The notes under the pieces were generated by a model, which was given only the letters and a program-made list of their open reading frames with translations, made no database searches and had not been told where the DNA came from. DNA of 64,000 nucleotides from Bacteroidia bacterium (GTDB taxonomy: Bacteria; Bacteroidota; Bacteroidia; JADZBD01): assembly GCA_020054095.1 (NCBI GenBank), contig JAGVMA010000044.1, positions 19,722 to 83,721 of the forward strand, read 5' to 3'. Within the stretch, counting starts at the first letter, position 1, and every line of letters starts with the position of its first letter. Of the stretch, positions 13,072-58,629 are shown piece by piece. Made by a program: the position numbers and the translations under genes.

Positions 13072-13500
13072 TTATTTATTTCTGAAAGTCAATATTTTTT
13101 CAAAATCAAGAAGTTTAAGCATCTTAAAATCATTTGCATAGTGTTTTATGTATTCGCTTACTGGTAATGCAACCACATTTAAGAAATGATTTTCTTTTTG
13201 CTCCAATATGTAATTATCTAACCACATATAATCTTTCTTTAATTGCAATCCAGCTTCATCGCCCTCGATGAGCATTGAAAGCTTCTTGGCTTCTGCAAAG
13301 TTTGTGCAAATAAATCCTTGCCTTAGGTTTTCGGCCGAATGTAGTCTTAACTTATAAATATCTTTTCCGTCAATTATTAAATGATGTTGCTGCCATTTAT
13401 AGCAAGCCTCCTTATTTGAATAGATGAAATCAATGTAGGGTTCGCCCGCTTTAACTATTTTTTTATCATACTCCTTTAAATTTTCAAATGCAAAAATCAT
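13072..13500 (-). CDS. hypothetical 142-aa protein translationally coupled to the RM enzyme gene
   Basis: Its ATG overlaps the TGA of the upstream gene (ATGA at 13497-13500). It shares the island's AT-rich composition. No motif was recognised. Confidence 0.5.
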   Translation of the reverse strand: MIFAFENLKEYDKKIVKAGEPYIDFIYSNKEACYKWQQHHLIIDGKDIYKLRLHSAENLRQGFICTNFAEAKKLSMLIEGDEAGLQLKKDYMWLDNYILEQKENHFLNVVALPVSEYIKHYANDFKMLKLLDFEKILTFRNK

Positions 13501-16500
13501 TTTCTTTCAATTATTTTTATTTCTTCTTTGGTAAGGTCGTAAAGTTTATAAACCAATTCGTCAATTTTCCTTTCCTGTTCGCTACTGTCTTTGCTTTGTT
13601 GTTTGAGTGAAATTATCTTGTCAACCAGTTTTGCTATTTCGTTAGCGTCTTTGTCAGCCGGTTTGTAAATAGGAATTTCAAGTAATGGTTCTTTGTCTAA
13701 TTGATAAGCGTTGCCTTGCATTTTACCTTTTTTGCGAAGCCAAAAAGCAACAAGTTTTGAGTTGAGCAAACCTGTCAAATATTTTAAGTTTATTCTTTTT
13801 GAACGAATAACATTAAAAGACATCATTACATATGCTTCTTCTTCCGTGAATGCAAATGTTGGAACAGCACATTTTCTAACACTTAAAATTTTCTCACCTT
13901 TTTCAAAGAAATATTCATCTCTTGGCCAATGCAAATTATTAAAACCGAGTTTGCCCTGTTGGTTTTCTCTGCGGTCTTCCATAATCTCCTTGAATTTCTC
14001 TAAATGAGAAATAAGTTTTGGTGCATCGTTTTTGAAATTCTTCTTTGTGATGTAGATAATCTCTTTGTCAAAATCATTTATTGAATACTTGTCAATTAGA
14101 TAAGGCTCGTAAACAGGTTTAATGTATCTGCTTTCTTTCACAGATAATTTTCCGAAAAAACCTTTATCAATAATGAAAACACCATCGCCAACTTTTATAT
14201 TTTCTTTTTTTACTCTTGCCGCTGGTAATTTTAGAATGTTATTATTGTTTACAACATCAGGATTAGGAACAATTCCCTGAGCAATTTCTTTCTTTGGGTC
14301 AATTATGAAATTGTGTTTTGTTTTTATCTTCTCAAGCAATCCTGAGTTTTCGTCTGTGTTAAAAGTCAATGGCTTATCAATTAAATTGCCTTTCAATATT
14401 GTTGGTGAAAGTAAATTTGATTTTTCGGTTTCTGTTCCATCAAGTAAGTTTAACACATCCTGCAAAACAAGTTTATCACCTTCTAACCGTCTGTAATCAA
14501 AACTATAATTGTCTGCTGTTTTGGTGTTTTTGAAAAGCATTATCATAGTTTGAATAGAGGCGTTTTCAAAAATCATATATGCACCAAAGTCAGTAAGATT
14601 TACGATTTGGCTATTTTGAATTACAATGTTTCTGAAATTTGATGCCCCTGCATTTGTACCCCAGTTGTTTGTTGCGATGTAACACAAATAATTATCTCGT
14701 TTCAAAATCTTTAAACCTAAATCGCCAAACAAATACCAAATGTCCATTTTACCCTGATAACATTCAAGGTTTCGCAAGCCATTAAAAGCATCACGGTTTG
14801 TATCTTCTTTGATGTATGGCGGATTTCCAATGATTAAATCAAAACCTTCAAACTCACCTTTGTTGTTAAGCACTTCGGGAAATTCAAAACGCCATTCAAA
14901 AGCGTTTTTGTATAAAGCATTAGATTTTATCTCCTCAATTTCTTTTGAAAGTTTATTTATATCATCCTCAAGTTTTTTCTGCCTTTCCTTTAAATCTTTT
15001 TTATAGTTTTTATTTCCATAGTTTGGTTCATCCTCTTTCACCATTCCTTTAAACAAATTGGGAGAAACAATAAGATAAAGTTCTTCGCTTAATTTTTGTA
15101 GCCGCTTAACTTTCGGGTCGTTTTTATAAATCTCGGTTCTGAAATCGCCTTTAATGGTGTCAATAATTTTCTGCAATCCCCTTTTTACATCACGATTTTT
15201 TTCGTTTTTATATTCGTTTACAAAACCCCTGTATGCTTTTATGTCGTGCTTTATGCTTTTCAGAGCTTTACTCAAATCAGCATCTAATGGAAAACGGCTT
15301 AATAAACTGTTTGCGCATTTTATATTGATGTCAATGTTTGGAAGCGTTTCAAGCTCTGTGTATTCTGTTTCTTTGTAGTAAGCATTTTTCAACAATTCTA
15401 TCCATAAACGCAATCGGCATATAAGAACAGATTTTGGGTTAATGTCAACGCCAAACAAACAGTTTTCAATGATGGTTTGCTTTTGATGAAAAAGCGTTTT
15501 TTGGATTTTCTGTTTCGAAGAGTTTGTTATTCGCTCATATGCTGCTTTATCACCCCCAAAGCTATAAGAGATGCTTTTGTTTTGAATTTGAGGTGCTACA
15601 TAAGAAAAACGCTCGTATGTATCTTTGTCGTAAACATATAGTTCGTCATCTAAAACCTCAACTACTACATTATGCAACACATTGCCTTTTTCATCAGCCA
15701 AAATGCCTAACTCAGATTTGATAGCAATCATTTCATTGAGTGCAGAAACTAAAAAGTGTCCTGAACCTACTGCTGGGTCGCAGATGTGTAATGAATTGAT
15801 GATTTCATTTGCTTTTAAAATTTCTCCGGTTTTGAAAAGGCGCGAAGTGTAGTTCTTAATATCATCAAATTTGTCAAAAAGTTTTTTGCTTTTGTCTGCT
15901 AATGCTTCGTTGAACTTTTCTACAACCGCCAAACGGATTGATTGACGGCACATATACATTGTGATAAATGCAGGTGTGAAAATTGAACCGTCACGGTAGC
16001 CGTTTATTTTTTCAAATACTTTTCCAAGAACGGAAGCATTTATCAGTTGCTTGTTGTCTTTTTGCCAATCTTCTGACCCTTCGCTTGCAAAATCGTAAGC
16101 ATCTAAAAATTGAAACAAGTAATCCAAAGAGGGCAGCGAAGCTGTCTTCTTTTTGATTTCTTTTAAGATGGTTGTATTTATTATTTCAAGCTGTCCGTCA
16201 TTTTCAAGCGAATTGATTTTGATCGTTTGGTCTTCCAGTTCGCTGATTTCAAATAGAGAACTGTTTAAGTATGGAACACGGTTGTATTTTGATTTGATTA
16301 GCCCTGTTCTGTCAGCAATGTTTACCGCTAAAACTTTGTGAAACAGTTTAAACAGTTCATCATAGTCGTGAATGGTTTCTGAATTAAGGAAACGATAATC
16401 TTTATTTCCTTGATGATAGGCAATGAGTTGACCTTCCAATAATTTCAAAAACAAAATCCTGTTTATCCAAGTAATACAGAGTTCTAAAGCAATATTGAAA

Positions 16501-17450
16501 GTTTGTTCTTCTTTGTTTTCGCCATAAACTTTGATGTCGGGAATACGGTGAAATGTATCTTCTGTTTTTAATGCTTCAATTGTTAGTTCAATAAGTGAAG
16601 CGGCATTTTTGTTTTCCTTCTTTCGTCTAATTACATTTTTTGTTCCTTCTCTTGCTTCTTCCAGTCCGATGATATGAAGCAACTCTTTGTAAAATCTTTC
16701 ATTTAGTGTGTTGCTGTCGTTTGGCGAAACAATTTTCAAAAGATGCTGTGGCGAAAGAATTTTGTAAAGTGCAACAAGTTCTTTGTCGTCATCCGTTTTA
16801 GTGTTACGGAGAATTTTCTCGTAATCCCTAATGTCAAAATAAACGCAAGGAATTTCAACCTCTATTTTAGAAACAATTTTTGCAATCTCTTCATAAAACC
16901 AAGGATTATCTTTCTTGTCGTTTACTTTGGTTTCGTATAGTTTTCGGATTTGTGTGTTTCGGTAAATATGTTTGTCAAAGTAGTTTGCATCAATGATAAA
17001 CCATTGGTTGATGTCAGTAACAACCAGATGTTTTAGCTGCACATTTTCCTTTGCGTTTCTTTCTGTCAGGTAATAAAGAATGAGTTCGTGTAATGCTTTT
17101 TTGTTGGCATTGTGAGCCGTAATCATTTCTTTAGCATTGGAAGGTCGTTTTGCTTCAATAATTACCGCAACATCCGTGTCTGTTGATTTGCCAATGTGAA
17201 TTACCAAATCTTTTTTGTCTTTGGTGTTTATGGCGTTGCTATCAATGTAGAAAGTGTCACGAAGGAAGTCGCGGAGATTGTTTTTTAAGTGTTCTTCGCT
17301 TTCGTCTTTGGGTTGCTTTTCAATAACACTAATCTTGTCAAACAAAGCAATCAAGTTGTTTTTAAACTTGTCTCTTTCGCTTTCTGAAGGTCGTTGCTTC
17401 AAAAATGCTTTAATTGCTTTTTTGGGTGATTGTGTTACTAATTTCATCAA
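13497..17450 (-). CDS. type IIG (MmeI/Eco57I-like) restriction-modification enzyme: N-terminal PD-(D/E)xK nuclease, gamma-class N6-adenine MTase, C-terminal TRD
   Basis: The 1317-aa protein has DTDVAVIIEAKRP (D...ExK), then VPYLNSSLFE and GSIFTP (motif X), DPAVGSGHFLVSAL (motif I), CANSLLS, EWRFEFPEV and FDLIIGNPPY (motif IV). It ends in a TaqI/Eco57I-type C-terminal specificity domain (...ELVYKLYDLTKEEIKIIE). These align with MmeI landmarks. Confidence 0.8.
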   Translation of the reverse strand: MMKLVTQSPKKAIKAFLKQRPSESERDKFKNNLIALFDKISVIEKQPKDESEEHLKNNLRDFLRDTFYIDSNAINTKDKKDLVIHIGKSTDTDVAVIIEAKRPSNAKEMITAHNANKKALHELILYYLTERNAKENVQLKHLVVTDINQWFIIDANYFDKHIYRNTQIRKLYETKVNDKKDNPWFYEEIAKIVSKIEVEIPCVYFDIRDYEKILRNTKTDDDKELVALYKILSPQHLLKIVSPNDSNTLNERFYKELLHIIGLEEAREGTKNVIRRKKENKNAASLIELTIEALKTEDTFHRIPDIKVYGENKEEQTFNIALELCITWINRILFLKLLEGQLIAYHQGNKDYRFLNSETIHDYDELFKLFHKVLAVNIADRTGLIKSKYNRVPYLNSSLFEISELEDQTIKINSLENDGQLEIINTTILKEIKKKTASLPSLDYLFQFLDAYDFASEGSEDWQKDNKQLINASVLGKVFEKINGYRDGSIFTPAFITMYMCRQSIRLAVVEKFNEALADKSKKLFDKFDDIKNYTSRLFKTGEILKANEIINSLHICDPAVGSGHFLVSALNEMIAIKSELGILADEKGNVLHNVVVEVLDDELYVYDKDTYERFSYVAPQIQNKSISYSFGGDKAAYERITNSSKQKIQKTLFHQKQTIIENCLFGVDINPKSVLICRLRLWIELLKNAYYKETEYTELETLPNIDINIKCANSLLSRFPLDADLSKALKSIKHDIKAYRGFVNEYKNEKNRDVKRGLQKIIDTIKGDFRTEIYKNDPKVKRLQKLSEELYLIVSPNLFKGMVKEDEPNYGNKNYKKDLKERQKKLEDDINKLSKEIEEIKSNALYKNAFEWRFEFPEVLNNKGEFEGFDLIIGNPPYIKEDTNRDAFNGLRNLECYQGKMDIWYLFGDLGLKILKRDNYLCYIATNNWGTNAGASNFRNIVIQNSQIVNLTDFGAYMIFENASIQTMIMLFKNTKTADNYSFDYRRLEGDKLVLQDVLNLLDGTETEKSNLLSPTILKGNLIDKPLTFNTDENSGLLEKIKTKHNFIIDPKKEIAQGIVPNPDVVNNNNILKLPAARVKKENIKVGDGVFIIDKGFFGKLSVKESRYIKPVYEPYLIDKYSINDFDKEIIYITKKNFKNDAPKLISHLEKFKEIMEDRRENQQGKLGFNNLHWPRDEYFFEKGEKILSVRKCAVPTFAFTEEEAYVMMSFNVIRSKRINLKYLTGLLNSKLVAFWLRKKGKMQGNAYQLDKEPLLEIPIYKPADKDANEIAKLVDKIISLKQQSKDSSEQERKIDELVYKLYDLTKEEIKIIERK

Positions 17451-17563: not shown

Positions 17564-18766
17564 TCAATACAAAAACGAATTATACGGATAACGGATGCTA
17601 TGCATTTTTTTAACCATATCGTAAAGGGTACTGCGCATTTCATCAATATTTTGTTTTTTAACGGCAGCAATAAAAACACATTTTATATTTTGGTTTCCCA
17701 TCCACGATTTTTTCCAATCATCGAGCGAATAGTTTCGCTTTGTTACAGGCGATAAATCAATAGGGTCTTTTTCTTCGTAAGTAAATGCATCAATTTTATT
17801 AAATACCAAAAGCGTAGGTTTATCGTGTGCTTTAATATCGGCAAGGGTTTGGTTCACCACATTTATTTGGTCTTCAAAATGGGGGTTAGAAATATCTACC
17901 ACGTGTACTAAAATATCTTCCTCGCGCACTTCGTCAAGTGTAGATTTAAATGATTCTACCAACTGTGTGGGCAGCTTGCGAATAAACCCAACTGTATCGC
18001 TCAGTAAAAAAGGTACATTGTCAATCACCACTTTTCGTACAGTAGTATCAAGCGTGGCAAATAATTTATTTTCAGCAAATACTTCTGATTTACTAAGCAT
18101 ATTCATAATAGTAGATTTTCCCACATTGGTATATCCCACCAAAGCAACTCGTATTAATTCGCCCCTGTTTTTTCGCTGGGTTGCCATTTGTTTATCTATG
18201 TCTACTAATTTTTGTTTTAACAGTGCAATGCGGTCGCGCAAAATTCTGCGGTCGCTTTCAATTTGCAATTCGCCCGAACCGCCACGAGTTCCGGTGCCAC
18301 CGCGCTGGCGCTCTAAGTGGGTCCACATACCGGTGAGGCGTGGCAGCATGTATTGGTAGTAAGCTAATTCTACTTGTGTTTTAGCATAAGCAGTTTGTGC
18401 CCGCTGCGAAAATATTTGCAGTATAAGCGAATTGCGGTCATGAATTTTTATGTTCAATTCTTTTTCCACATTTCGCATCTGCGATGGCGAAAGTTCATCA
18501 TCGAAAATTGCGATTTGTATTTTATGCTCATCTACATATTTTTTTATTTCCTGTAATTTTCCGCTGCCTACAAATGTTCGCACATCGGGCTTTTCGAGTT
18601 TTTGAGTAAAGCGTTTTTTTGCATCGGCACCATAAGTGAGTGCTAAGAATGCTAACTCATCTAAATACTCGTTTAATTTATTTTCATCTTGCTCACGATT
18701 AATTAAGCCAATGAGCAGTGCAGGAATTAAATCGGCAGGTTTTGTATGTTTAATTTTTTCGAGCAA
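17564..18766 (-). CDS. hflX: GTPase HflX
   Basis: HflX N-domain followed by a G domain (GYTNVGKST, DTVGF, NKID). Confidence 0.85.
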   Translation of the reverse strand: MLEKIKHTKPADLIPALLIGLINREQDENKLNEYLDELAFLALTYGADAKKRFTQKLEKPDVRTFVGSGKLQEIKKYVDEHKIQIAIFDDELSPSQMRNVEKELNIKIHDRNSLILQIFSQRAQTAYAKTQVELAYYQYMLPRLTGMWTHLERQRGGTGTRGGSGELQIESDRRILRDRIALLKQKLVDIDKQMATQRKNRGELIRVALVGYTNVGKSTIMNMLSKSEVFAENKLFATLDTTVRKVVIDNVPFLLSDTVGFIRKLPTQLVESFKSTLDEVREEDILVHVVDISNPHFEDQINVVNQTLADIKAHDKPTLLVFNKIDAFTYEEKDPIDLSPVTKRNYSLDDWKKSWMGNQNIKCVFIAAVKKQNIDEMRSTLYDMVKKMHSIRYPYNSFLY

Positions 18767-46390: not shown

Positions 46391-47428
46391 ATGAAAAAAC
46401 AACTACTTTTTGCATCACTTGCATTTGCATTTACTGCAAAGGCACAAATTACATTAGTGGAGTGGGACGTAGCTCCGGTAGGCACACAGCTTGTGCAAGA
46501 CCAAGATACAATTCCTAACGTGCAGCCCGGCTCATCAGGTGCTAATGCCGTTTGGAATTTTATTAATGTGGTTCCACACACAACTAGCAATATAAGTGTT
46601 ACCAACCCTAACTGGACACCATACAGTTCGGAAATGCAGGGCTCAAACTTGGCATTTGACTTAGGCCAGCAAACCTATTTTTACCTTAATAACACTTCTA
46701 ATGGGCTTTTTGCAATTGGGCAAGCAGGCGATTTTGGTCTTGGGCCAATGGCAATTAGACTTGACGACCAAGAGCAACTATTAAAATTCCCGATGACTTA
46801 TAATACAAGCTTTAATGATACTTCGCTTGTAGATTTTACTACATTTTTCGGACAACAAGGAATAGATTCTGTTCGCATAGTTCAATACAAAACCAAAACA
46901 GTGAATGTAGATGGCTGGGGAAACATCACCACTCCGCTTGGCACATTTACGTGCTTGCGACAAAAAAACTATAGCATCACCACTACCGATATTTACGGCT
47001 ATGTAATGTTTGTTGGCTGGCAACCGCTACAAAGCCAAGTGGATACTAACTACCAATTTGAGTGGTGGACACAAAACAAAGGTTATGCAGTAATGAGCAT
47101 GGATAGTGCGGTGGATGGAACCATTTCAAATGTTAATTGGTTATCGGCCAATCCGGCACCTAATGCTGTGGAAGAAAACAATGCAGCTGTAAGCATCGGG
47201 GTTTATCCTAATCCGGCTAACAGCGTAATTAGTTTTGATGTAACCAATGTCAATGCCGAGCAATTATCTATTACTGATATTACCGGCCGCGCAGTGCAAA
47301 CCATAAATGTGCAGCAAAACTTAATTAATATGAATGTTACCGATTTTGCCGCAGGCACTTATATCTATACCGTGCGCGATGCAAATGGCGCCATCGTTAC
47401 ATCGGGTAAGTTTAATGTAACCAAGTAA
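46391..47428 (+). CDS. secreted protein with type A T9SS C-terminal sorting domain
   Basis: Signal peptide. The C-terminus VYPNPANSVISFDV...GTYIYTV...FNVTK is a Por_Secre_tail pattern. Confidence 0.7.
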   Translation: MKKQLLFASLAFAFTAKAQITLVEWDVAPVGTQLVQDQDTIPNVQPGSSGANAVWNFINVVPHTTSNISVTNPNWTPYSSEMQGSNLAFDLGQQTYFYLNNTSNGLFAIGQAGDFGLGPMAIRLDDQEQLLKFPMTYNTSFNDTSLVDFTTFFGQQGIDSVRIVQYKTKTVNVDGWGNITTPLGTFTCLRQKNYSITTTDIYGYVMFVGWQPLQSQVDTNYQFEWWTQNKGYAVMSMDSAVDGTISNVNWLSANPAPNAVEENNAAVSIGVYPNPANSVISFDVTNVNAEQLSITDITGRAVQTINVQQNLINMNVTDFAAGTYIYTVRDANGAIVTSGKFNVTK

Positions 47429-47541
47429 TACTATTTTTTTAGCAAAAGCCTCGCTTCCATTCTGAACATATTTAATGGAGCCGGGCTTTTGCAATTTTAA
47501 AAAAGATTACTTACTTTTATTGACCTTTAAATAACAGAAAC

Positions 47542-48471
47542 ATGAAAAAACAATTACTATTAATAGCTACTGTTGCCTCATCACTAGCACTATTTGCACA
47601 ACAAAATGCAAGTTTTGAAACTTGGTCGTCAATATTTAATGCCCCCACACAACCCAATAACTGGGTTAGTGCAAATTTATTTGCATCACCACTTATTGAT
47701 GCTAACAACCCTACATCGGTATTTAAAGATTCGTTAGCGAATAAAACCAACGGACAGTATTCCATGAAAATTACCACAATAAAACTAACCACCAATCCCG
47801 ACCCGGCAGCAATCCCGGATACATTAGGATACGCTGCACAAGGAGTAGTGATCGTTCAGTTACCTACATTTAATATTTTAGATAGGTTACCATTCACTGG
47901 CCGTCCGGCAAATTTTAATTTCATGTACAAATACACACCAAGCGGTACCGACAGTGCATTTGCATACATAGAGCTAACAAAATGGAACACTACATTAATG
48001 CGCAGAGACACAATAGGCGCAATGGGATTTTTTATGTTAGCCTCAACTAATTTCGCTACCGGTGGAGGTTCGCTTATTTATAATCCATTGTATCCAAATA
48101 CATTCCCCGATAGTTTGCACATTTCTTTTTCATCAAGCAGCTACCTTACACCGCGCTTAGGCAGCACCATGTGGGTTGATGAAATTTCGCTTACAGGTTG
48201 GACAGGAATAAGCCAAATAGATGCCAATGCTTCTTATGTAAAAGCATTTCCTAACCCATCAAATAGTGCTGTAACCATTTCAGTTGATTTGCCTAATGCT
48301 AAACACATTACTATTTACAATCAACTTGGGCAAACAATGGGCACCAAGCAAATTAATGCCAAACAAATTATAATTGAAGCAAATACATTTGCTCCGGGCA
48401 ATTATTACTATTCCGTTACCGATGAAAACGGAACAGTAGTTGCCGGAAATACATTTACCATCACACATTAG
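47542..48471 (+). CDS. secreted protein with type A T9SS C-terminal sorting domain
   Basis: Signal peptide. C-terminus AFPNPSNSAVTISV...YYYSVTDENG...FTITH. Confidence 0.7.
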   Translation: MKKQLLLIATVASSLALFAQQNASFETWSSIFNAPTQPNNWVSANLFASPLIDANNPTSVFKDSLANKTNGQYSMKITTIKLTTNPDPAAIPDTLGYAAQGVVIVQLPTFNILDRLPFTGRPANFNFMYKYTPSGTDSAFAYIELTKWNTTLMRRDTIGAMGFFMLASTNFATGGGSLIYNPLYPNTFPDSLHISFSSSSYLTPRLGSTMWVDEISLTGWTGISQIDANASYVKAFPNPSNSAVTISVDLPNAKHITIYNQLGQTMGTKQINAKQIIIEANTFAPGNYYYSVTDENGTVVAGNTFTITH

Positions 48472-48480
48472 TTTTCACTA

Positions 48481-48512
48481 AAAAATACTCCGCCTTGGCG
48501 GAGTATTTTTTC
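48481..48512 (+). terminator. rho-independent terminator
   Basis: aaaaatactccgcc-tt-ggcggagtattttt. Confidence 0.65.
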
Positions 48513-48530
48513 ACCACTTAGGTTAAAAAA

Positions 48531-50621
48531 ATGTTAAGCAAAAAAAATTGGTTAGTTGTAGTTGTGCTTTGCAGCATTAATGCAGTAGCGCAAACTTATA
48601 CCAATACCATCGGTGGAACCATTGCAGATAACAATACTTATACATCTTATCCTATTTCAGTAAGCGGGTTAAATCCGGCAAACCTGAATACTAGCAGTTT
48701 TGGTTTAGAAAGTGTAACTATAAATATTGCGCACACAGCTGTGGGCGATTTGCGTATTAAATTAGAATCGCCCGATGGCAGCGAGTATGTACTCACTTCT
48801 TTTTTGGGCGGCACCGGCAATGATTATACAAATACAAATTTTACTGATACAGCAGCAAATTCTATTTCAGCAGGCACGGTTCCGTTTACCGGATATTTTA
48901 AACCCATAGATGCGCTCAGTAATTTTAACAATGGTCAAAACGGTAACGGCACTTGGAACTTAAATATTCGCGATCAAACAACAGGCAACACAGGCAGTGT
49001 AACATCGTGGAGTATAAAATTTAGTAACACCCCTGCGGGTTTTGTAAATTTCACATCATCTAATTTGCCCATCATAATCATTAATACTAATAACCAAGCT
49101 ATAGTTGATGACCCTAAAATATATTGCAACATGGGCATCATCTATAATGGTGTAGGCAACAGAAATTACATCACCGACCCACTTAACCATTACAACGGCC
49201 GCATAGGAATTGAGTTGAGAGGTTCAAGTTCGCAATGGTTTGATAAAAAGCCGTATGGATTTGAAACAGTGGATAACAATAATTTAGAATTAGACACCGC
49301 CTTACTTGGAATGCCGAGCGAACACGATTGGATTTTAAGTGCAAGCTACAGCGATAAAACATTTTTACATAATCCGCTCAGTTACAAATTAGCAAACGAC
49401 ATGAACCGCTATGCACCACGCACACAATTTGTGGAGTTGGTAGTAAACGGAGATTACAAAGGCGTGTATACTTTGATGGAAAAAATAAAACGAGACGATG
49501 GCAGAGTGGATATTGCCAAGCTCGATTTGGATGATAATGCAGGCGATTCACTAACCGGTGGATACATTATTAAAGTAGATAAAACAACAGGCAGCGGTGG
49601 TGCAGGCTGGTACTCTAATTATGCTCCGGCAGTTAGCACAGGCGGTCAGCAAATTTATTTTCAATACGATTATCCGAGCGATGTAAACATTACGCCACAA
49701 CAGATAAATTATATTCAGCAGTATATAGATAGTTTTGAAACTGCACTTAACGGCCCTAATTTTGCTGATACTGCAATCGGGTACAAAAAGTACCTCAGCA
49801 CCTATTCATTCATTGATTATTTTTTGATTAACGAATTATCGCGCAATGTGGACGGTTACCGAATAAGCACATATTTACACAAAGAAAAAAACGGAAAAAT
49901 TAAAATGGGACCTGTATGGGATTATGATATTGCCTGGCACAATGCTGATTATTGCAATGGATCACTTACAACAGGATGGGCACATGAATTTGGTAACGAT
50001 TGTCCGGCCGATTCTTGGCAAGTCCCGTTTTGGTGGAGGCGTTTACTGCAAGACACTAACTATGCAAATAAACTCCGCTGCCAGTGGGACTATTTAAAAA
50101 CAAATATTTTAAGTTTGAGCGCAATTAATCAATACATAGATACCAATGCGGCATTGCTAAATGAATCGCAACAACGCAATTTTACTCGTTGGCCCATTTT
50201 GGGAGTTTATGTTTGGCCTAATCCATCGCCAATACCTACTTCTTATCAGGGAGAAATAACTCAGCTAAAACAATGGATTACCCAGCGCTGGAATTGGCTG
50301 GATGCAAATATCCCCGGCAATTGCTACACGCTTAGTACTCCAGAAACTATATTGCCCCAAAATAGCGTAAGTGTTTTCCCCAATCCATTCAATGCTAATT
50401 TTACTGTTGAATTTTACATGCTGCAAAACTCTGCTGTACAATTTGCGCTTTACAATATGCTGGGAGAAAAAATTTATACATCCACCAATAGGAATTACAA
50501 TGCAGGTGGTAACCAATTTTTGGTAAACACTGCCAGCTTAAACCTTAATAGTGGTATGTATTTATTGAAAATTACTTGCGGTAACACTGTTATTACCAAG
50601 CCACTGGTAAAAACCAATTAG
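48531..50621 (+). CDS. CotH-like (atypical kinase fold) secreted protein with N-terminal proprotein-convertase P-domain and T9SS C-terminal domain
   Basis: P-domain-like LESVTINIAHTAVGDLRIKLESPDGSEY. CotH-like core (GIELRGSSS..., ...VNGDYKGVYTL...). C-terminal VFPNPFNANFTVEF...GMYLLKI tail. Confidence 0.6.
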   Translation: MLSKKNWLVVVVLCSINAVAQTYTNTIGGTIADNNTYTSYPISVSGLNPANLNTSSFGLESVTINIAHTAVGDLRIKLESPDGSEYVLTSFLGGTGNDYTNTNFTDTAANSISAGTVPFTGYFKPIDALSNFNNGQNGNGTWNLNIRDQTTGNTGSVTSWSIKFSNTPAGFVNFTSSNLPIIIINTNNQAIVDDPKIYCNMGIIYNGVGNRNYITDPLNHYNGRIGIELRGSSSQWFDKKPYGFETVDNNNLELDTALLGMPSEHDWILSASYSDKTFLHNPLSYKLANDMNRYAPRTQFVELVVNGDYKGVYTLMEKIKRDDGRVDIAKLDLDDNAGDSLTGGYIIKVDKTTGSGGAGWYSNYAPAVSTGGQQIYFQYDYPSDVNITPQQINYIQQYIDSFETALNGPNFADTAIGYKKYLSTYSFIDYFLINELSRNVDGYRISTYLHKEKNGKIKMGPVWDYDIAWHNADYCNGSLTTGWAHEFGNDCPADSWQVPFWWRRLLQDTNYANKLRCQWDYLKTNILSLSAINQYIDTNAALLNESQQRNFTRWPILGVYVWPNPSPIPTSYQGEITQLKQWITQRWNWLDANIPGNCYTLSTPETILPQNSVSVFPNPFNANFTVEFYMLQNSAVQFALYNMLGEKIYTSTNRNYNAGGNQFLVNTASLNLNSGMYLLKITCGNTVITKPLVKTN

Positions 50622-50716
50622 TAGTAGTATCTGATTTGAGCCATTAATTCGAGTTAAATTTTCTTGCAATTAATCTACTTTAAGTGTAAATTAGCGCCAC
50701 TAAAAACTTATGTACC

Positions 50717-52771
50717 ATGAAAAAAATATTTACTTCGACCTTTATAATTGGAATTTTAATTTCAGGTAACGCACAACATTTTTGCGGAACCACTGAAGTT
50801 TACAACCAAGTAGTGCACGATCATCCGGAGGTTTTACAAGAGCAAGAGCAGCTTGAAAATTTCACACAGCAGTATCAGCTTAACTTTAAAGGAAACAATA
50901 CCACATCGGCACCTATTTATACAATACCGGTGGTGTTTCACATACTACACCAATACGGCACCGAAAATATTTCTGAGCAGCAGATAAACGACCAAATGCG
51001 AATTTTGAATGAAGATTTTCAAAAGCTTAATGCAGATGTAAATACTGTGGCCGCCAGTTTTCAGGGCATATCTGCCGATGCACAAATACAATTTATGTTA
51101 GCACGCAAAGACCCAAATGGTAATTGCCACACGGGAATAGACAGAATAGTTTCGCCTGAAACAAACATTGGTGATGATGGCTCAAAACTTAACTCATGGC
51201 CGCGCAATAAATATTTGAACGTGTGGGTAGTGAAAACAATTTCTAGTGGCGCAGCTGGTTACGCTTACTTGCCAGGTACTGCACCAAGCGCAGCGGTAGA
51301 TGGTCTGATGATGCTTTCTACATATATAGGAAGTATTGGAACGGGCAATCCATCTACATCGCACACACTCACACACGAAGTAGGGCATTTTTTTAACCTA
51401 CAACACACATGGGGCAATACCAATCAGCCGGGCGTTTCTTGTGGTAATGATGGCGTTTCAGATACACCTGTAACAAAAGGGTGGACGACCTGCAACCTAA
51501 CAAACAATGATGTGTGCACTAGTGGTGTGGATGAAAATGTAGAAAACTTCATGGAATATTCTTTTTGCTTTAAAATGTTTACTGCCCAGCAAGCAACACG
51601 TATGCAAGCTTGCTTAAATAACACTGCCGGGCAGCGCAATCAGTTGCCAACAACATCAAACCTTGCAGCTACCGGAGTAGATGGAAGCATGAATAATGTT
51701 ACATGTGCCCCTATAGCAGATTACATTGCAACATTTAATTACGCGTGCACAGGTACAACATTTACATATAAAAATTATAATTGGGGTGGCCGAGCTACTT
51801 CATACAATTGGTCGTTTACGGGCGGCACTCCTTCATCATCTACTGATTCAATTCCATTAGTTGTTTACAATACACCTGGCACCTATTCTTCGTCAATGAC
51901 TGTTTCTAACGGAAGTGGCTCAAACACCCAAACAAGAACAAATTATGTAACTGCGTTTTCGCCAACAGCACAGTATAATTCATTTCAGTACTACGAAGGG
52001 TTTGAAAGCGGCAGTATTCCTAATAACGACTGGACGGTAATTAATCCGCAAAGTAATGCTTGGACGGTATCAAACACAGCATTTTTCACTGGTGCAAATT
52101 CTGTTAGACTAACTAACACAACTGCTAATTCAAGTCAAATAGATGAATTTTTTGGACCCTCTATTAATTTAGTTTCCATCCCCTCTCCGATATTTACATT
52201 TAAAGTTGCATTTGCACAGCGTACCACTAGCAATGCAGATAGATTACGAGTGCTCGTTTCCACAGATTGTGGTAGAACATGGGTTCCGAGATTAGCAAAA
52301 TCGGGTACTAATTTGAAAACCGTAAACCCAACCAATGTATCGTTTGTTCCAAATTCGCAATCGCAATGGAGAACGGAAACAATTAATCTTGCATCGTATG
52401 TAAATAGCACTAACGTGAGAATTAAATTTGAGTTTACCAGCGATGGAGGAAACAATATTTATATTGATGACATAAATATTCTTGGCGCATCATCTATTAA
52501 TGATGAATTTGAAAACGCTGTTGCGATGACATTGTTTCCTAATCCAACGGATGCCAACAGTACCGTTAGTTTCAATGTGCTACAGACAGGGAAAATATCA
52601 TTACAAATTACGGATATGATTGGTAGAATGGTTGACGAAATTTACAATGGCGAGATGATTGCGGGCGAACAACAATTATTTATCCCAACTGAAAATATGA
52701 GCAAAGGTATTTATACAGTTATGCTAAATATTGATGGGCGAATAGTTGCTAAAAAGCTGATAGTTAATTAA
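50717..52771 (+). CDS. M43 (pappalysin/cytophagalysin-like) zinc metalloprotease with T9SS C-terminal domain
   Basis: HTLTHEVGHFFNLQHTWG (HExxHxxGxxH). C-terminal LFPNPTDANSTVSFNV...GIYTVML tail. Confidence 0.7.
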   Translation: MKKIFTSTFIIGILISGNAQHFCGTTEVYNQVVHDHPEVLQEQEQLENFTQQYQLNFKGNNTTSAPIYTIPVVFHILHQYGTENISEQQINDQMRILNEDFQKLNADVNTVAASFQGISADAQIQFMLARKDPNGNCHTGIDRIVSPETNIGDDGSKLNSWPRNKYLNVWVVKTISSGAAGYAYLPGTAPSAAVDGLMMLSTYIGSIGTGNPSTSHTLTHEVGHFFNLQHTWGNTNQPGVSCGNDGVSDTPVTKGWTTCNLTNNDVCTSGVDENVENFMEYSFCFKMFTAQQATRMQACLNNTAGQRNQLPTTSNLAATGVDGSMNNVTCAPIADYIATFNYACTGTTFTYKNYNWGGRATSYNWSFTGGTPSSSTDSIPLVVYNTPGTYSSSMTVSNGSGSNTQTRTNYVTAFSPTAQYNSFQYYEGFESGSIPNNDWTVINPQSNAWTVSNTAFFTGANSVRLTNTTANSSQIDEFFGPSINLVSIPSPIFTFKVAFAQRTTSNADRLRVLVSTDCGRTWVPRLAKSGTNLKTVNPTNVSFVPNSQSQWRTETINLASYVNSTNVRIKFEFTSDGGNNIYIDDINILGASSINDEFENAVAMTLFPNPTDANSTVSFNVLQTGKISLQITDMIGRMVDEIYNGEMIAGEQQLFIPTENMSKGIYTVMLNIDGRIVAKKLIVN

Positions 52772-52795
52772 CACCTAAAAGTAAATCATCACAAA

Positions 52796-52833
52796 AAAGC
52801 AGGGCGGCCAAAGGCCGCCCTGCTTTTTTGTGA
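52796..52833. terminator. bidirectional rho-independent terminator between convergent genes
   Basis: aaaaaagcagggcggcc-aaa-ggccgccctgctttttt. Confidence 0.75.
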
Positions 52834-52855: not shown

Positions 52856-55800
52856 TTAATTCTCTCCCCGCAATGGCAAATCAGCCAAGTAATCGTCCAA
52901 TAATTTTTTAGAATTTTTGGTTTTAAAGAAACTCATTGGTTGATAGTTGATGTCTTTGTCTTTTCCGCGAACAAGCATGTGTAAAAACCAGCTGTCTTCG
53001 GAGTAGGTTCCAAATGGTTTTGGAGTCATAGTCATTAGCTGGTAGCCGAACTGCTGTGCAATCATTGGGAACAACCCAAAGTTGGTATCATCAATGTTTG
53101 ATAACTCCTCGATGATGATGAAGCGAACACCCGGGCGATTTTTATCGCGCTGAATAACCGATAAACGACCGATACATAATAAAGCAAGCGCAGTGTAAGC
53201 TTGCCCGCCCGAACCCGAGTAACGATTATTTTTATCATCGTACAAACCCACACGCAATTCAAAATAAAATTTAGGATTCAATAGATCCTCTAATTCACAA
53301 TTTTTTACCATGCTGAATTGCTGAGCAATGCTGATGATAAATTTATCGGGAGAATTATCTCCATGATGCATGCCGGGTTGCTCGGTAAATAAATCGGCAC
53401 CAAAGCGTTGCACTTTAGCGCGTTCGCGCATTTTAGCAATCCAGTCAATGGTTATGTCTTTGCGGTCGTTAAAATCAATGCGGAAATTATATCCATAACT
53501 GATTTTATTTTCGCTGAAGAAAAAGTTAAGTTCAGTAACTAATCGTTTTAAGGCATGGTATTGTTTTTCTACTTGCGAAAACACATTGACGATAATTGCT
53601 AACTGTAAATCACCAAATTTTTTCAACTCCTCATTCAATTTTCCAAGTTCAGGCGAAATGCCTTCTAAGCCGAGCTTACCACACAACACCCTCACAAGCG
53701 TAAAAAAATTAAACTTATCGTTTTCCACATCCGGGCTTTTGTGATCTTTTGTTTCGTCAAACGATTGCACAATGCGCGTGTATTCCTCTTCATAATCTCT
53801 GCGAGCAGCATTGTATTCAATTTCCATCTTTTTAATTTGCCTATCAGTTAAATCTCCGGTTTGCAAAATATCTTCAAACTTAAAACTTGTTTCGCTCTCT
53901 AACGCTTTGCGTTTTTCTTCAAATGCCGTGCGCGATTTGTTTAAATCTGCGGCTAATTGCTTGTCGCGTTCTTTACATGAGTTAATAGTTCCTTCGGCCG
54001 AAATAATGTTGCGCTCGGTCTCTTCGCGCTGCTCTTCTAATGAGTGTAATTGCTCCTCAACATCCTTTAACTGATCACGAACAATATCAATTTTCTGATT
54101 TTTTAAAGCTTTCAATTGGTCGGCAGTTAATTTTTTACCGCTTTGTCGGTCTAATTCGGTTTCGTATCTCAGCATATCGCGCACCATGTTTTCGTTTTCG
54201 ATATGCCCTTCGGTTTGTCGTTTAGCAATTAAAATTGCCTCTTCGTTTACTCGCCTGTAATCATCCCTCAGCTCATCATACTGCGATAAATTATCAATAT
54301 TGTTTTGAATAATTTCTATAACAGATTCGGTTAAGTCTTCGTCAATTTCAAAAGATTCAATGTCTTTCCGCTTTTTATATGCTTCAAACATTTCGGCATT
54401 GTAACCAATATTACTTAGCTCGCGGTTAAGTTTAGAAATTTTGTCAAACTCTTCTTTCGCCTCTGCCAAATTCTTGGCCGCTTCTTCTTTGTCTTTCGCC
54501 AAAGATGTTTTAAGGTTTTTTGCGTTACCAAACTTTTGCTCGCTTATATAAGGAACATATTCGCGCAACTCCCCAAGCACCAACCAAATTCCGTTTTTGT
54601 CTTCTTCAACTGCATCTAACAATGATTTAGGGTCGTCAGTATAACGTATTCCGGCTTCGGCAGTTTTTGGTTTTTTTAGCAATACATCTTTAAAATGCAT
54701 TAAAGCAGTTTCTTGTGCAACGGTCAAACTTTTCTTTTGTGCCGCAGCCCATACCAAAAGCGAATCGGCAGCCCCGCTTTCATAGACATCAAGCAAATTC
54801 TCAAGCTCGGCAATAGTTTGTGGCAGGTCTATTAATTTTTGCTGATAGTGCTCATAAGCATTGTCGTAATCCTTAGCCCATTCTGATTTTTCAAACTCGG
54901 CAAAGCTGTTTATTGATTTCAATAATGATAAACGCTTTTTAACATCACCAAAGTTTGCTTGCTTGTTCAGTTGCTCGCGTATGGCTTTTACCGATTTATA
55001 TTTTTTAAATATCGGGTCTATTTTTTCCAATTCGTTTAAAACGATGAGCAACTTATTCGCTTGCACACGCAATTCTTCAATTTTAATATCACTCAACTCA
55101 GGCAGTACGTTATCGTAATGCTCTTTCATAATAGTAGTTATCGCAAAAGCTTCGGCATATAGTTTTAATATATTGCTTTGCAATACTTTTATTTCTTCTG
55201 AGTTTTTTTTGAAACTTTTTTGTGCATTTTCTAACCTATAAGCATTTTCCTCGTGTATCTTGTGTATATCAATATAAGTGAGTGATGCTAAAATAGCATC
55301 GCTTTTCAGATAGTCTATTTTTTTCTCGGCATATTTATCGTGCTTTTCTTTTAAGGCGGTTAGCTTAGTTTGCTTCACCTCCAATTCATTAATTACGGTC
55401 CGGTTTAAATTATATTGCCTGATGTAACTCACAAGCATATCTTTTTGCTCGCCAAATAGTGTTTTAATATCTTCGTTTTCCTCGAACAAGAAATTCTGTA
55501 AACTTTTTGAGTTATTGATGTCAAGCGTTTTGGCGCGTGCAAACGATTGAATAACTTTTGCATACGCTTTTAAGTTATTCTCTTTTGTTAAATCAATTGG
55601 AATTAGTTGATTTTTATAAAGTATATCGTAATACAGTTGTATTTCTTCGGATTGAAAAAAGTCTTTCAAGAACAAGCCATGCTTCTTATGTAACTGCTCT
55701 TTCAGTTCTCTCAAGTCAAGTACCTTTTTATCATCACCTAAAAAATCCCACGATTTTATTGGTCGCTCGAAAGAAATGAGCGTTTTGTTTTCAAAGTCAT

Positions 55801-56164
55801 CGCTCTTTTGAATAATGAAAGGCCTAACCGGCATTCTAGAATTTTTTGGTATAAATGCCCCGATGCAAATAAATCGGTTTTGGTAGCGCTCAATATTAAT
55901 AAAGGTGTAGCCGTGCTCCACATAATCTTTATTGAGCGGAATGCCTTCAATTTTTCTGTCGTTTTTACCCACGCCTTCGGTGCCCGGTTTCCACATATCG
56001 CGCTTCGGAATAAAAATAAGTTGCATTAAGTCGGCAATTACTGATTTGCCTAATCCGTTATCTCCCGTAAAATCGGTGCGGATAGGATGCAAAAGGTAAT
56101 CGGCATTATTGTGCTGCCTTATGCCAGCAGTAGATAGAGAGTAAATTCTAGGATAGTTGCTCAT
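52856..56164 (-). CDS. SMC/MukB-like ATPase (Wadjet JetC / MksB-type)
   Basis: 1102 aa. N-terminal P-loop FTGDNGLGKSV, long coiled-coil middle, C-terminal signature GSGGQ and Walker B FIIIEE. Confidence 0.7.
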   Translation of the reverse strand: MSNYPRIYSLSTAGIRQHNNADYLLHPIRTDFTGDNGLGKSVIADLMQLIFIPKRDMWKPGTEGVGKNDRKIEGIPLNKDYVEHGYTFINIERYQNRFICIGAFIPKNSRMPVRPFIIQKSDDFENKTLISFERPIKSWDFLGDDKKVLDLRELKEQLHKKHGLFLKDFFQSEEIQLYYDILYKNQLIPIDLTKENNLKAYAKVIQSFARAKTLDINNSKSLQNFLFEENEDIKTLFGEQKDMLVSYIRQYNLNRTVINELEVKQTKLTALKEKHDKYAEKKIDYLKSDAILASLTYIDIHKIHEENAYRLENAQKSFKKNSEEIKVLQSNILKLYAEAFAITTIMKEHYDNVLPELSDIKIEELRVQANKLLIVLNELEKIDPIFKKYKSVKAIREQLNKQANFGDVKKRLSLLKSINSFAEFEKSEWAKDYDNAYEHYQQKLIDLPQTIAELENLLDVYESGAADSLLVWAAAQKKSLTVAQETALMHFKDVLLKKPKTAEAGIRYTDDPKSLLDAVEEDKNGIWLVLGELREYVPYISEQKFGNAKNLKTSLAKDKEEAAKNLAEAKEEFDKISKLNRELSNIGYNAEMFEAYKKRKDIESFEIDEDLTESVIEIIQNNIDNLSQYDELRDDYRRVNEEAILIAKRQTEGHIENENMVRDMLRYETELDRQSGKKLTADQLKALKNQKIDIVRDQLKDVEEQLHSLEEQREETERNIISAEGTINSCKERDKQLAADLNKSRTAFEEKRKALESETSFKFEDILQTGDLTDRQIKKMEIEYNAARRDYEEEYTRIVQSFDETKDHKSPDVENDKFNFFTLVRVLCGKLGLEGISPELGKLNEELKKFGDLQLAIIVNVFSQVEKQYHALKRLVTELNFFFSENKISYGYNFRIDFNDRKDITIDWIAKMRERAKVQRFGADLFTEQPGMHHGDNSPDKFIISIAQQFSMVKNCELEDLLNPKFYFELRVGLYDDKNNRYSGSGGQAYTALALLCIGRLSVIQRDKNRPGVRFIIIEELSNIDDTNFGLFPMIAQQFGYQLMTMTPKPFGTYSEDSWFLHMLVRGKDKDINYQPMSFFKTKNSKKLLDDYLADLPLRGEN

Positions 56165-56804
56165 TTATATATTCGCTCATTAGTTCAACATTTGCAATTT
56201 CATTGGCGTATAATCGTGCTATGCGATCAATACTTGGCATAATTTCAAATTGTGTGGCTTCGTAATCAACCCAGTGTATCCAGCCAAAGCGCTCGAATAA
56301 AGACAGCGAGCGCTCAAACCTGCGTTTCATTTCTTCTTTTTCGTTAGGAGTATAATTGCGTTTTATTTCTCCGTACAAAACTTTTTGCCATAGTTCTTTG
56401 TGTTCACTTTCATCAATCACTTGTTCTATTTGTTGCCACTTTACTTCTTTGCTTTCAAAAAAACGCTCCTTATATATATTAAGTAACAGCACGGCAATAA
56501 TCACATGACGGTCGTCCATGATTCGGTGGCGGTCGCCCACAAATTTTCCGCTGCCATCTTGTGGTAGTTCAATAAAAAAATAAATATCGCGTTCGTTGCT
56601 TTCTCTGCGAAGGTAAACGGCAAATAGGTGTTCGTAATACAAGCACAGTTGCTCGTAGTGATCGTTAATGTAATCCCACAGTTTTGCATCCGAAGCATAG
56701 TTTTGTATGTGTCGTCCGGCACGGAGCGCAAAGTCGCAATCGGCAAAATATTTGCCCGATGCTTCGTTTGCTAAGAATTGGAGCGAGTAATTTTCATTTT
56801 CCAT
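56148..56804 (-). CDS. MukE-like (Wadjet JetB / MksE-type, DUF4194-like) protein
   Basis: 218 aa, acidic. Its position and overlaps (17 nt with the ATPase gene, 34 nt with the upstream gene) match jetB/mksE in JetABC/MksFEB operons. Confidence 0.55.
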   Translation of the reverse strand: MENENYSLQFLANEASGKYFADCDFALRAGRHIQNYASDAKLWDYINDHYEQLCLYYEHLFAVYLRRESNERDIYFFIELPQDGSGKFVGDRHRIMDDRHVIIAVLLLNIYKERFFESKEVKWQQIEQVIDESEHKELWQKVLYGEIKRNYTPNEKEEMKRRFERSLSLFERFGWIHWVDYEATQFEIMPSIDRIARLYANEIANVELMSEYINEQLS

Positions 56805-58102
56805 AGTGCTAAATCGTCTTTTGCTTTAAATGGTTTTTGTTGATCAATAACAATATCCATTTCTTTATTACGGTTATATTTTTGAATTAAATTAAAACAC
56901 ACATCAATAGGCACTTCCAAATTTTTCTCTTTGGCGTACATGTCCTTAAACCATTTTTCATAAATAAAATCTTCGCCCTTTGCTAATGATGCGTTAATGC
57001 TTTCGAGCCACTGCGTAACACTTTCTTGCCTGTTTAGTACACGCATGTTCTCGGCTTCTTTTTTCTTTTTGTACTCGGCATCTTCTTCCATCTCGGGCAC
57101 ATCGCGTGGCGTAACTTCTGTAAAATTGAGCGATGGTATTTTGGTGTATTTTTCTCTGAAATATGGAATTTTACGATTGGCAATATTTTCGGGTAGCACC
57201 ACCACAGCATCATTTGTCCACTTGCTGTTTTTTAAAAGATAGTGCAAAAACTTTTCAATTTTTAATTTAAAAAGCTGCTTGTATTGTAGTGTTTCATAAA
57301 GCGCACGCAACCTCGAAGTTGATAATTGTATCCGGTCATTTATGGAAAGTACGCGACTATCTATGTTATCAAAAAATTTTTCTACCTCGTGTCGTATTTT
57401 GGTATATGATTCCCAATCTTCTTTTTTATCCAGAAAATTCTTCTCGGCATCTTTTATATTGTCAATTATCTCGAGTTTAAAATTTAATGTTTCAGTAAGG
57501 CCATCGGTTTGTTTTCCCAGGCCTTCAAAAATTTCGATAAAGCGAGTAATTAATTCTTTCGTGCTTGTAATTTCGCTTTTTAAAAGAGTGCGCAATGCCA
57601 TTGTTTTAGCATCCACTAATCTTTGCAAGTTTTCGGAGTGAGCTAAAATAATTCGTTTTGATGGTTCATAATGCTGCCGAAACCAATATTCAAAATTTTT
57701 AATCGAAGTTAAATCCTCTCGCTCCATTTTCAGCGTTCGTCTAAAAGTGTGGATTAGTTCCGTCTCTTCAAACTGGGGTTCCATCTCATTTATGATGATG
57801 CGAACCAAATCGCGCGCAAAAACAGTTAACTGGTAACGATATTCGTTACCTTTTTTAAGAGTAGTATAATAAAACTGGCTAAGTTTACGGGAGATGCTTT
57901 CTTTTTGGATAGTTTGCCCACGATGCAAAATGTTCGACACTTCGTCAATTGCATCCTCAAAATCGCGTTGCGTGAATGGATCTTCAATTTCTTGTTTGTC
58001 AATTTTATTTTGGAGTGTTATCAGGAGCAGAACCACTTCTTTATTTTGTGGGAGAAGTGTATCGTAATTTCCTAAAACCGATTGCAAAAGCTCTTTTTGC
58101 AT
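56771..58102 (-). CDS. MukF-like kleisin (Wadjet JetA / MksF-type, DUF3375-like) protein
   Basis: 443 aa, first gene of the three-gene overlapping operon. Size and order fit jetA/mksF. Confidence 0.5.
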   Translation of the reverse strand: MQKELLQSVLGNYDTLLPQNKEVVLLLITLQNKIDKQEIEDPFTQRDFEDAIDEVSNILHRGQTIQKESISRKLSQFYYTTLKKGNEYRYQLTVFARDLVRIIINEMEPQFEETELIHTFRRTLKMEREDLTSIKNFEYWFRQHYEPSKRIILAHSENLQRLVDAKTMALRTLLKSEITSTKELITRFIEIFEGLGKQTDGLTETLNFKLEIIDNIKDAEKNFLDKKEDWESYTKIRHEVEKFFDNIDSRVLSINDRIQLSTSRLRALYETLQYKQLFKLKIEKFLHYLLKNSKWTNDAVVVLPENIANRKIPYFREKYTKIPSLNFTEVTPRDVPEMEEDAEYKKKKEAENMRVLNRQESVTQWLESINASLAKGEDFIYEKWFKDMYAKEKNLEVPIDVCFNLIQKYNRNKEMDIVIDQQKPFKAKDDLALWKMKITRSNS

Positions 58103-58284
58103 GAAGAGTGGTGTTTTTTTAGCGCATCTAAAATATAGTAAATAAGCGCGGCAGTAGTTAAAAGTTATTAACGCTCGCCCTCATTTTGTTGATACTCAAA
58201 AGAAGAAAAACAAATTAAAATTAGTGCGGTAAAAAGATTTTGAATTTATTTTGCCGAAGTAAAAATTAAAACACACAAACTACG

Positions 58285-58629
58285 ATGACCAAAAATATTC
58301 GAGTCCTTGAAAATTTTCATATTCCGTTGTGGCTGATAAAAGATGCTTGCTGGATGTTCCACTGGAAATTAATTGGTGTAACTATGATTGCTCCAACATT
58401 AGCAGTATCGCTGCTTATTGTTTTCATTACTCGAAAATCGAATGATGTTTTTATTAACGCAGCAATTTCTTTTTGGATTTCGGCAAATGCTTTTTGGATG
58501 TGTGCCGAGTTTTTTGCATTTGAGCAATACAAAGAACTGGCCGCAATTCCTTTTTCGTGCGGATTTTTATTCGTTATTATTTTTTACTTGAGAGCGAAAA
58601 AAACTAAAAACGAAGAAAAAAATACCTGA
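58285..58629 (+). CDS. small integral membrane protein (hypothetical)
   Basis: 114 aa with 3-4 hydrophobic helices. Confidence 0.35.
   Translation: MTKNIRVLENFHIPLWLIKDACWMFHWKLIGVTMIAPTLAVSLLIVFITRKSNDVFINAAISFWISANAFWMCAEFFAFEQYKELAAIPFSCGFLFVIIFYLRAKKTKNEEKNT

Follow-up and report, generated by a model that had tools for sequence, protein, structure and literature searches.

The three-gene operon at 52856-58102, on the minus strand of the Bacteroidia bacterium contig JAGVMA010000044.1 stretch analysed here (64 kb, hereafter the window), is the F-E-B core of the Wadjet/Mks group, that is, a kleisin, a KITE protein and an ATPase of the structural maintenance of chromosomes (SMC) type. The folds, profiles and gene order identify the three subunits and the ATPase motifs are intact, JetD, the nuclease of the Wadjet systems, is absent from every locus of the operon's clade that extends far enough downstream, and the loci of this clade lie in non-defence neighbourhoods. 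We propose that the operon probably encodes the motor core of a nuclease-free Wadjet-group (MukBEF-like) SMC complex that would act on the host chromosome in a condensin-like manner, a role that is favoured because of the clade-wide loss of the nuclease, the conservation of the remaining subunits and the non-defence neighbourhood.

The operon consists of the following genes.
56771-58102, minus strand: mksF/jetA-like kleisin gene, 443 aa, identified by structure prediction and structural matches.
56148-56804, minus strand: mksE/jetB-like KITE gene, 218 aa, identified by Pfam PF21980 MksE (E 2.6e-17).
52856-56164, minus strand: mksB/jetC-like SMC ATPase gene, 1102 aa, identified by motifs, a family profile and an AlphaFold2 model searched with Foldseek.

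In the open reading frame (ORF) listing of the window, the kleisin and KITE genes overlap by 34 nt (56771-56804) and the KITE and ATPase genes by 17 nt (56148-56164), exactly the sizes and overlaps that an earlier note on this DNA had given, so that the three are co-directional and tightly coupled in the order F-E-B. More than 80 loci carry homologues of all three, full-length and in this same order, and the three are therefore genuine genes. In GC content the operon (0.36-0.38) resembles the window as a whole (approximately 0.37).

Only the KITE gene is recognised by sequence profiles. Its product matches Pfam MksE at 64.1 bits against a cut-off of 27, while its Pfam matches to MukE and DUF4194 are weak and under their cut-offs, and it scores 18.4 bits on the NCBIfam MukE equivalog, for which the cut-off is 250. 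The kleisin returned nothing significant in JetA/DUF3375 searches of Pfam, NCBIfam, PADLOC and the PDB sequences, and its Pfam match to DUF892 is weak and under cut-off. The ATPase alone found no Pfam match at E 0.01 and none among the PDB sequences; it matches PADLOC JetC2 partially (E 1.1e-5), the JetC/DUF3584 searches being otherwise weak and partial as well. None of the operon proteins matched the PADLOC JetA or JetB models, the NCBIfam MukB or MukF models, or the ScpA and ScpB families in Pfam. Since the profile searches with the kleisin and the ATPase were empty or weak and partial, structure prediction was needed. In the predicted kleisin a winged helix stands at each terminus, with three long helices and then a disordered linker (approximately residues 300-340) between them, and the best structural match is MukF; the first-encoded subunit is therefore a MukF/JetA-type kleisin.

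The 1102-aa translation carries GDNGLGKS at residues 33-40, GSGGQ at residues 984-988 and FIIIEE ending at E1020, the three motifs that the earlier note had named. Across the ATPase family, no variation is seen at G34, G39, K40, S985, G987 and E1020, and hardly any at Q988, E1019 and H1062. The AlphaFold2 model (pLDDT 78.5) has the SMC arrangement, with an N-terminal head (residues 1-230), a coiled coil (231-462), a small hinge (approximately 463-547), a second coiled coil (548-885) and a C-terminal head (886-1102). Foldseek with this model ranked MukB (9gm6_B, 2.5e-31) first, ahead of the Wadjet-II JetC (9qe0_A, 2e-24) and the Wadjet-I JetC (8q72_A, 4e-14), with Smc5/6 and Rad50 behind them. 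The profile of the ATPase family reached the MukB head structures 3euj (E 7.6e-6) and 1qhl (E 3.2e-5), and a precomputed match to the MukB N-terminal domain is present in many of the homologues. On the SMC_prok models TIGR02168 and TIGR02169 the ATPase scores approximately 11 bits against cut-offs of 567-729, which, together with the low score of the KITE on the MukE equivalog, makes the operon neither SMC-ScpAB nor MukBEF proper. The proposal that this is a MukF/MukE/MukB-like operon of the JetABC/MksFEB type is thus backed by the MksE profile, the MukB head matches, the structural matches to MukB and JetC, and the gene order.

The relatives of the operon differ in whether a fourth gene is present. 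A search of 1.84 billion representative proteins with the ATPase-family profile gave only 398 matches at E <= 0.001, of which 253 reach E <= 1e-30; the lineage is small and isolated in sequence, and its named members are nearly all Bacteroidota. We fetched 80 genome loci, and eleven further ones by exact protein look-up, predicted their ORFs and determined what kind of gene comes after that of the ATPase. Of the 80 loci, 49 have a fourth gene of 280-320 aa that directly follows or overlaps the ATPase stop. The encoded proteins (L002:13320-14168, L003:13359-14315 and those of 47 other loci) form one homologous family (alignment A2) with the invariant motifs C-E-N, ELW..GG.N and (C)DWD..G, which carry the glutamate and DxD signatures typical of Toprim domains. 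Pfam JetD_C is matched by 12 of 21 fourth-gene proteins (best E 2.7e-5), one matches PADLOC JetD1 at 4e-4, and the A2 profile aligns the same Toprim motifs to MksG 8b7f at a non-significant E of 2, a correspondence of motifs only. The fourth gene thus encodes a short, divergent Toprim nuclease of the JetD/MksG type, and the ancestral form of the lineage is a four-gene JetABCD-like system. The ATPases of these JetD-carrying relatives are 25-44% identical to that of the window.

Two further features of the four-gene members may be recorded. The nuclease of this lineage, at 280-320 aa, is short beside the 387-409 positions of the PADLOC JetD profiles, and Pfam and PADLOC barely detect it. Four-gene operons also occur on contigs assigned to an archaeon (Candidatus Altiarchaeales archaeon A3, L021) and to Deinococcota (a Trueperaceae metagenome-assembled genome, L039), a placement that reflects either horizontal transfer or a binning error.

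The remaining 31 of the 80 loci split into two groups, namely the clade of the window operon (clade 1), with ATPases 48-100% identical to that of the window, and a group with ATPases of 1161-1181 aa that are 28-30% identical to it (clade 4). Among the loci with enough downstream sequence, neither group has a JetD-like ORF or tblastn match. Within the 64 kb of the window, tblastn with 51 JetD-like proteins of relatives found nothing better than E 0.03, no JetD-like ORF lies downstream of the ATPase gene or elsewhere, and no JetD fragment follows the ATPase stop. The absence of JetD that had been noted at this locus is thus found in the window as a whole and across its clade. Two loci that seemed to lack the gene were rejected as JetD-less, L018, the sister and nearest outgroup of clade 1, in which tblastn finds a JetD cut off by the contig end, and L079, in which it is cut off in the same way.

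In a bootstrapped neighbour-joining tree (100 replicates), clade 1 is monophyletic in 99 replicates and nested in a group, recovered in all 100, in which every other member carries JetD. Monophyly of the second JetD-less group was recovered in 100 of 100 replicates, and joint monophyly of the two groups in none. The lineage has therefore lost the nuclease on at least two occasions. In the window's clade the loss was ancient and clade-wide, a single event at the root of a group whose ATPases are now down to approximately 48% identity. Simple local loss, in which jetD would be consistently adjacent in orthologous loci, was looked for and was not seen: the loci of the same clade (ATPase identity 48-78%) that extend far enough downstream have no JetD, which is present only in the more distant sister clades, and the loss is therefore not a simple local one. 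A substitute fourth gene was also sought downstream of the ATPase in clade 1, and only subgroup-specific neighbours were found, none of them clade-wide; a replaced effector is therefore not supported.

Several details of the two JetD-less clades were seen along the way. Some clade-1 ATPases (L013, L015, L016, L017, L088) carry an acidic low-complexity C-terminal tail of 70-180 aa, which the window protein lacks and which ends near a conserved ERKQEFL-like motif (QRKQKYL in L017). The second clade (L040, L048-L058, L064-L067, L077, L089), with its 1161-1181-aa ATPases, also lies in non-defence neighbourhoods; in L052, the sole member of it that was read, GSNGQ stands where the window has GSGGQ, and an ORF of approximately 167 aa is conserved 100-300 nt downstream in L053, L055, L065, L067 and L077.

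Comparison with the closest genome, L086, bears on how the operon has been maintained. The ATPase, kleisin and KITE are 78.0%, 73.5% and 85.8% identical to the window proteins, respectively, and among the neighbours BipA is 87.7% and the racemase-family enzyme 56.1% identical. The synonymous sites are saturated between the two genomes, so that dN/dS is not computable and only the protein identities can be used. The 34- and 17-nt overlaps are both conserved in L086. In the window's clade, F-E-B without G has been long and stably maintained.

The JetD-carrying and JetD-less loci also differ in their surroundings. The four annotated clade-1 loci lie among BipA/DnaJ, gyrB/topo IV, RpoD/DapF/MutS/YceG and CdaA/LptFG genes, and the first two JetD-positive loci examined adjoin genes of the McrBC, HNH, ScoMcrA and STAND types. 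When 107 flank proteins per group were compared with PADLOC at E <= 1e-5, the JetD-positive flanks matched 372 families, including full-length GajA (9e-287), GajB (2e-220) and DpdF (2e-205), as well as AriA, mad2/3 and AbiEii. The clade-1 flanks matched 57 families, and the 25 listed among these, each matched by two flank proteins, are generic DEAD-box-helicase-, OmpA- and patatin-type families with a best value of 1e-22; the clade-4 flanks gave few and weak matches, to 6 families. The JetD-carrying loci therefore lie in defence islands (Gabija, Dpd, PARIS, MADS, AbiE), whereas the JetD-less loci lie among housekeeping genes. The earlier note had left a choice between a second condensin and a Wadjet variant with its effector encoded elsewhere or replaced; the housekeeping flanks favour the condensin-like alternative, and the replaced effector finds no conserved substitute gene to stand for it.

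The borders of the operon were read as follows.
52789-52833, no strand assigned: bidirectional intrinsic terminator, a perfect 20-bp stem with 11 G-C pairs and a 5-nt loop, AAAAAA before it and TTTTTT after it.
58103-58284, minus strand: upstream intergenic region with a candidate promoter, from sequence reading.
58285-58629, plus strand: gene for a small hydrophobic protein of 114 aa with at least three long hydrophobic stretches, divergent from the operon.

The ATPase stop (52856) is separated by an 84-nt gap from the stop (52771) of a convergent M43 peptidase gene (50717-52771). The hairpin begins within 23 nt of the ATPase stop and is common to both transcription units, and it could terminate in both directions because of the A-run and the T-run on its two sides. 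Both borders thus agree with the earlier description, a bidirectional terminator at one end and a small membrane-protein gene at the other. The Bacteroidota -7 box has the consensus TAnnTTTG, and the element TATATTTT at 58130-58137, 28-35 nt ahead of the ATG of the kleisin gene, resembles it and may, by this resemblance only, be a candidate promoter. A sigma-70-like match lies on the minus strand at 58161-58132, and promoter-like sites in this region are no commoner than in shuffled sequence. The 114-aa protein has no family match; it is conserved in the closest genome only (L019/L086, 63% identity), where the upstream synteny (racemase-family enzyme, lipoprotein and BipA) matches that of the window.

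Elsewhere in the window, four genes for proteins sorted by the type IX secretion system (Por_Secre_tail) form a run on the plus strand (46391-52771) that converges on the operon terminator; one of the products has a CotH kinase domain, and another is an M43 metallopeptidase that also has a PKD domain. Neighbours with such secretion tails, together with the GC content of approximately 0.37, assign the window to the Bacteroidota. At 36 kb from the operon, the minus strand encodes a fused restriction-modification enzyme of 1317 aa (13497-17450; DUF7149, DUF7814, Eco57I methylase and TaqI_C specificity domain), adjoining an HflX-type GTPase gene (17564-18766). A 1180-aa ORF at 6368-9910 on the minus strand has no Pfam match at E 1e-5, and no other ORF of at least 250 aa in the window has an N-terminal P-loop.

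The following mechanism can be considered. The operon descends from a Bacteroidota-specific four-gene JetABCD-like system, which at the root of the clade lost, a single time, the gene for its short Toprim nuclease. As in the solved MukBEF and JetABC structures, the kleisin would bridge both ATPase heads of the SMC dimer and bind KITE dimers, and the complex would load on and entrap DNA and, driven by ATP, extrude it in loops. A Wadjet complex that stalls on a small circle brings in a JetD dimer at the 'larynx' of JetC, a surface that in E. coli JET binds the aCAP domain of JetD, and the DNA is cut (10.1101/2023.11.03.565488). A complex without JetD would be unable to cleave the DNA that it extrudes, and its target would be the host chromosome, in compaction and segregation, as for MukBEF and the Pseudomonas aeruginosa MksBEF, and not plasmids to be cut in defence. 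From the likeness to these systems we infer the assembly of the complex, its loop extrusion and its chromosomal target.

Several points weigh against a chromosomal role. The hosts are uncultured and known from metagenome-assembled genomes, and the search for JetD covered the 64 kb of the window. The argument from genomic context covers approximately 13 loci per group, on crude ORF calls. Once ATPase identity is below approximately 70%, no flank genes are shared any more, and this decay is alike in loci with and without JetD; positional conservation therefore lends no support to a housekeeping role. Moreover, a nuclease-free complex could act on foreign DNA and leave it uncut, in the way that Smc5/6 silences the DNA of some viruses and so restricts them.

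The main rival explanation is that the operon still serves defence, its JetABC-like motor sensing small circular DNA and either recruiting an unlinked effector or restricting plasmids without cleavage, through compaction, silencing or interference with partitioning. Its closest relatives outside the clade are indeed JetABCD-like systems of four genes that lie in defence islands, conservation of the motor subunits is complete, and only 64 kb of the host genome was searched for JetD. However, the genes downstream of the ATPase vary by subgroup and provide no conserved alternative for the clade, the searched 64 kb hold no JetD-like sequence, and the flanks of clades 1 and 4 show no defence genes among the families listed. 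An unlinked JetD would also have no parallel in the lineage, because the nuclease gene adjoins or overlaps the ATPase gene in all 49 JetD-positive loci. A continuing defence function is thus unlikely.

Alternatively, the operon could now be the main or only condensin of its host, having replaced SMC-ScpAB as MukBEF did in gamma-proteobacteria, a precedent that has been described (PMC10586767). The long-lived nuclease-free clade, the strong conservation and the housekeeping neighbours would all suit this explanation. However, SMC-ScpAB is present in cultured Bacteroidota. Nuclease-free MksBEF systems are, in addition, known to coexist with SMC in P. aeruginosa and in mycobacteria (PMC11329512), and such a replacement appears rather doubtful here. 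Equally speculative is the broader idea that a Wadjet motor was independently domesticated into the principal chromosomal condensin of an uncultured lineage of Bacteroidia, perhaps replacing SMC-ScpAB, and a second, separate time in the clade of the 1162-aa ATPase; if true, the history of MukBEF would have been repeated once more.

That the operon is the product of a recent local deletion, or a decaying and functionless remnant of a four-gene Wadjet system, is very improbable. The fourth gene is present in the sister clades, as such an origin would have it, but its absence is common to a clade of 99% bootstrap support spanning 48-100% ATPase identity, all three reading frames are whole, their overlaps are conserved and the catalytic residues do not vary, protein identity to L086 is high despite saturated synonymous sites, and a clean terminator closes the operon within 23 nt of the ATPase stop with no JetD fragment. 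Weakest of all is the suggestion that a repair ATPase of the Rad50/SbcC type stands here beside two genes unrelated to it, a reading which draws on the Joint Genome Institute names 'exonuclease SbcC' for the ATPase and 'ferritin-like YciE' for the 443-aa protein and on the sub-cut-off DUF892 match, but which is opposed by the kleisin and KITE folds or profiles of the partner proteins, by MukB and JetC as the best structural matches ahead of Smc5/6 and Rad50, by some 11 bits on SMC_prok models with cut-offs of 567-729, and by the lack of an adjacent SbcD/Mre11 gene. Both a decaying remnant and an SbcC-type protein are effectively excluded. In public annotations of P0001, P0121 and relatives, the kleisin is named 'ferritin-like metal-binding protein YciE' and the ATPase either 'DNA repair protein SbcC/Rad50' or 'exonuclease SbcC'; these source names conflict with the fold and operon evidence and are wrong.

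The lineage offers a natural comparison, since closely related motors with a nuclease in defence islands and without one among housekeeping genes occur in one compact group, which makes it useful for studying how an SMC machine directed against plasmids is altered once it is turned to chromosomal use. In addition, current defence-system and Pfam profiles miss the kleisin, the ATPase and the nuclease of this Bacteroidota lineage. The gain is incremental, because JetD loss and nuclease-free Mks condensins have already been published. MukBEF and several other Wadjet-group members lack MksG/JetD, and the loss of the nuclease has been mapped across the group (Burmann et al., 2025, PMC7617805, Figure S1A). 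The entries covered here of Data S1 of that paper include 'FEBG' operons of the Bacteroidota, from Bacteroidales bacterium DNSQ01000001.1, Odoribacter sp. OF09-27XD and Sphingobacterium siyangense, with gene sizes of 441/221/1115/282, 434/217/1117/318 and 453/236/1049/306 aa. Their gene order is that of the window and their sizes are nearly identical to those of our four-gene relatives L002 (442/217/1116/282 aa) and L003 (434/218/1117/318 aa), but they carry the short MksG/JetD gene that the window's clade is without. Judged from gene sizes and taxa only, the JetD-positive part of the lineage thus appears to be catalogued already in Data S1, while six contigs of the JetD-less clades were looked for in that table and not found among its rows other than five 'Bacteroidetes bacterium' ones, so that this clade too may be listed there.

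Compared with the type I Wadjet JetABCD (E. coli GF4-3, P. aeruginosa PA14) and the Corynebacterium glutamicum MksBEFG, the window operon shares the kleisin, KITE and SMC folds and the gene order, and the fourth gene of its relatives shares the Toprim motifs of MksG. However, it differs from type I Wadjet in lacking JetD, in having no PADLOC JetA or JetB match and only a weak, partial JetC match, and in lying outside a defence island. SMC-ScpAB has in common with it the general SMC architecture of head, coiled coil and hinge and a kleisin with a C-terminal winged helix, whereas the kleisin partner in the window is an MksE-type KITE, ScpA and ScpB find no match, and TIGR02168/TIGR02169 score only approximately 11 bits. 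MukBEF of E. coli and relatives, which is chromosomal, is the closest in structure, MukF being the top match of the kleisin and MukB that of the ATPase, and is likewise nuclease-free, but the MukB chains in the matched structures have approximately 1470 residues against 1102 aa in the window ATPase, the KITE reaches 18 bits on a MukE equivalog with a cut-off of 250, and the host phylum is different.

The nearest parallels are the nuclease-free Mks systems. The P. aeruginosa MksBEF, which organises the chromosome, probably arose when JetABCD lost its JetD (PMC10586767), and a nuclease-free MksB has a chromosomal role in mycobacteria (PMC11329512); both, like the window operon, are F-E-B cores without MksG/JetD. 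In contrast to these systems, the window operon is known from sequence alone and represents an independent loss in a different, sequence-isolated lineage. The operon repeats a known evolutionary path in a new and poorly annotated lineage of the Bacteroidota.

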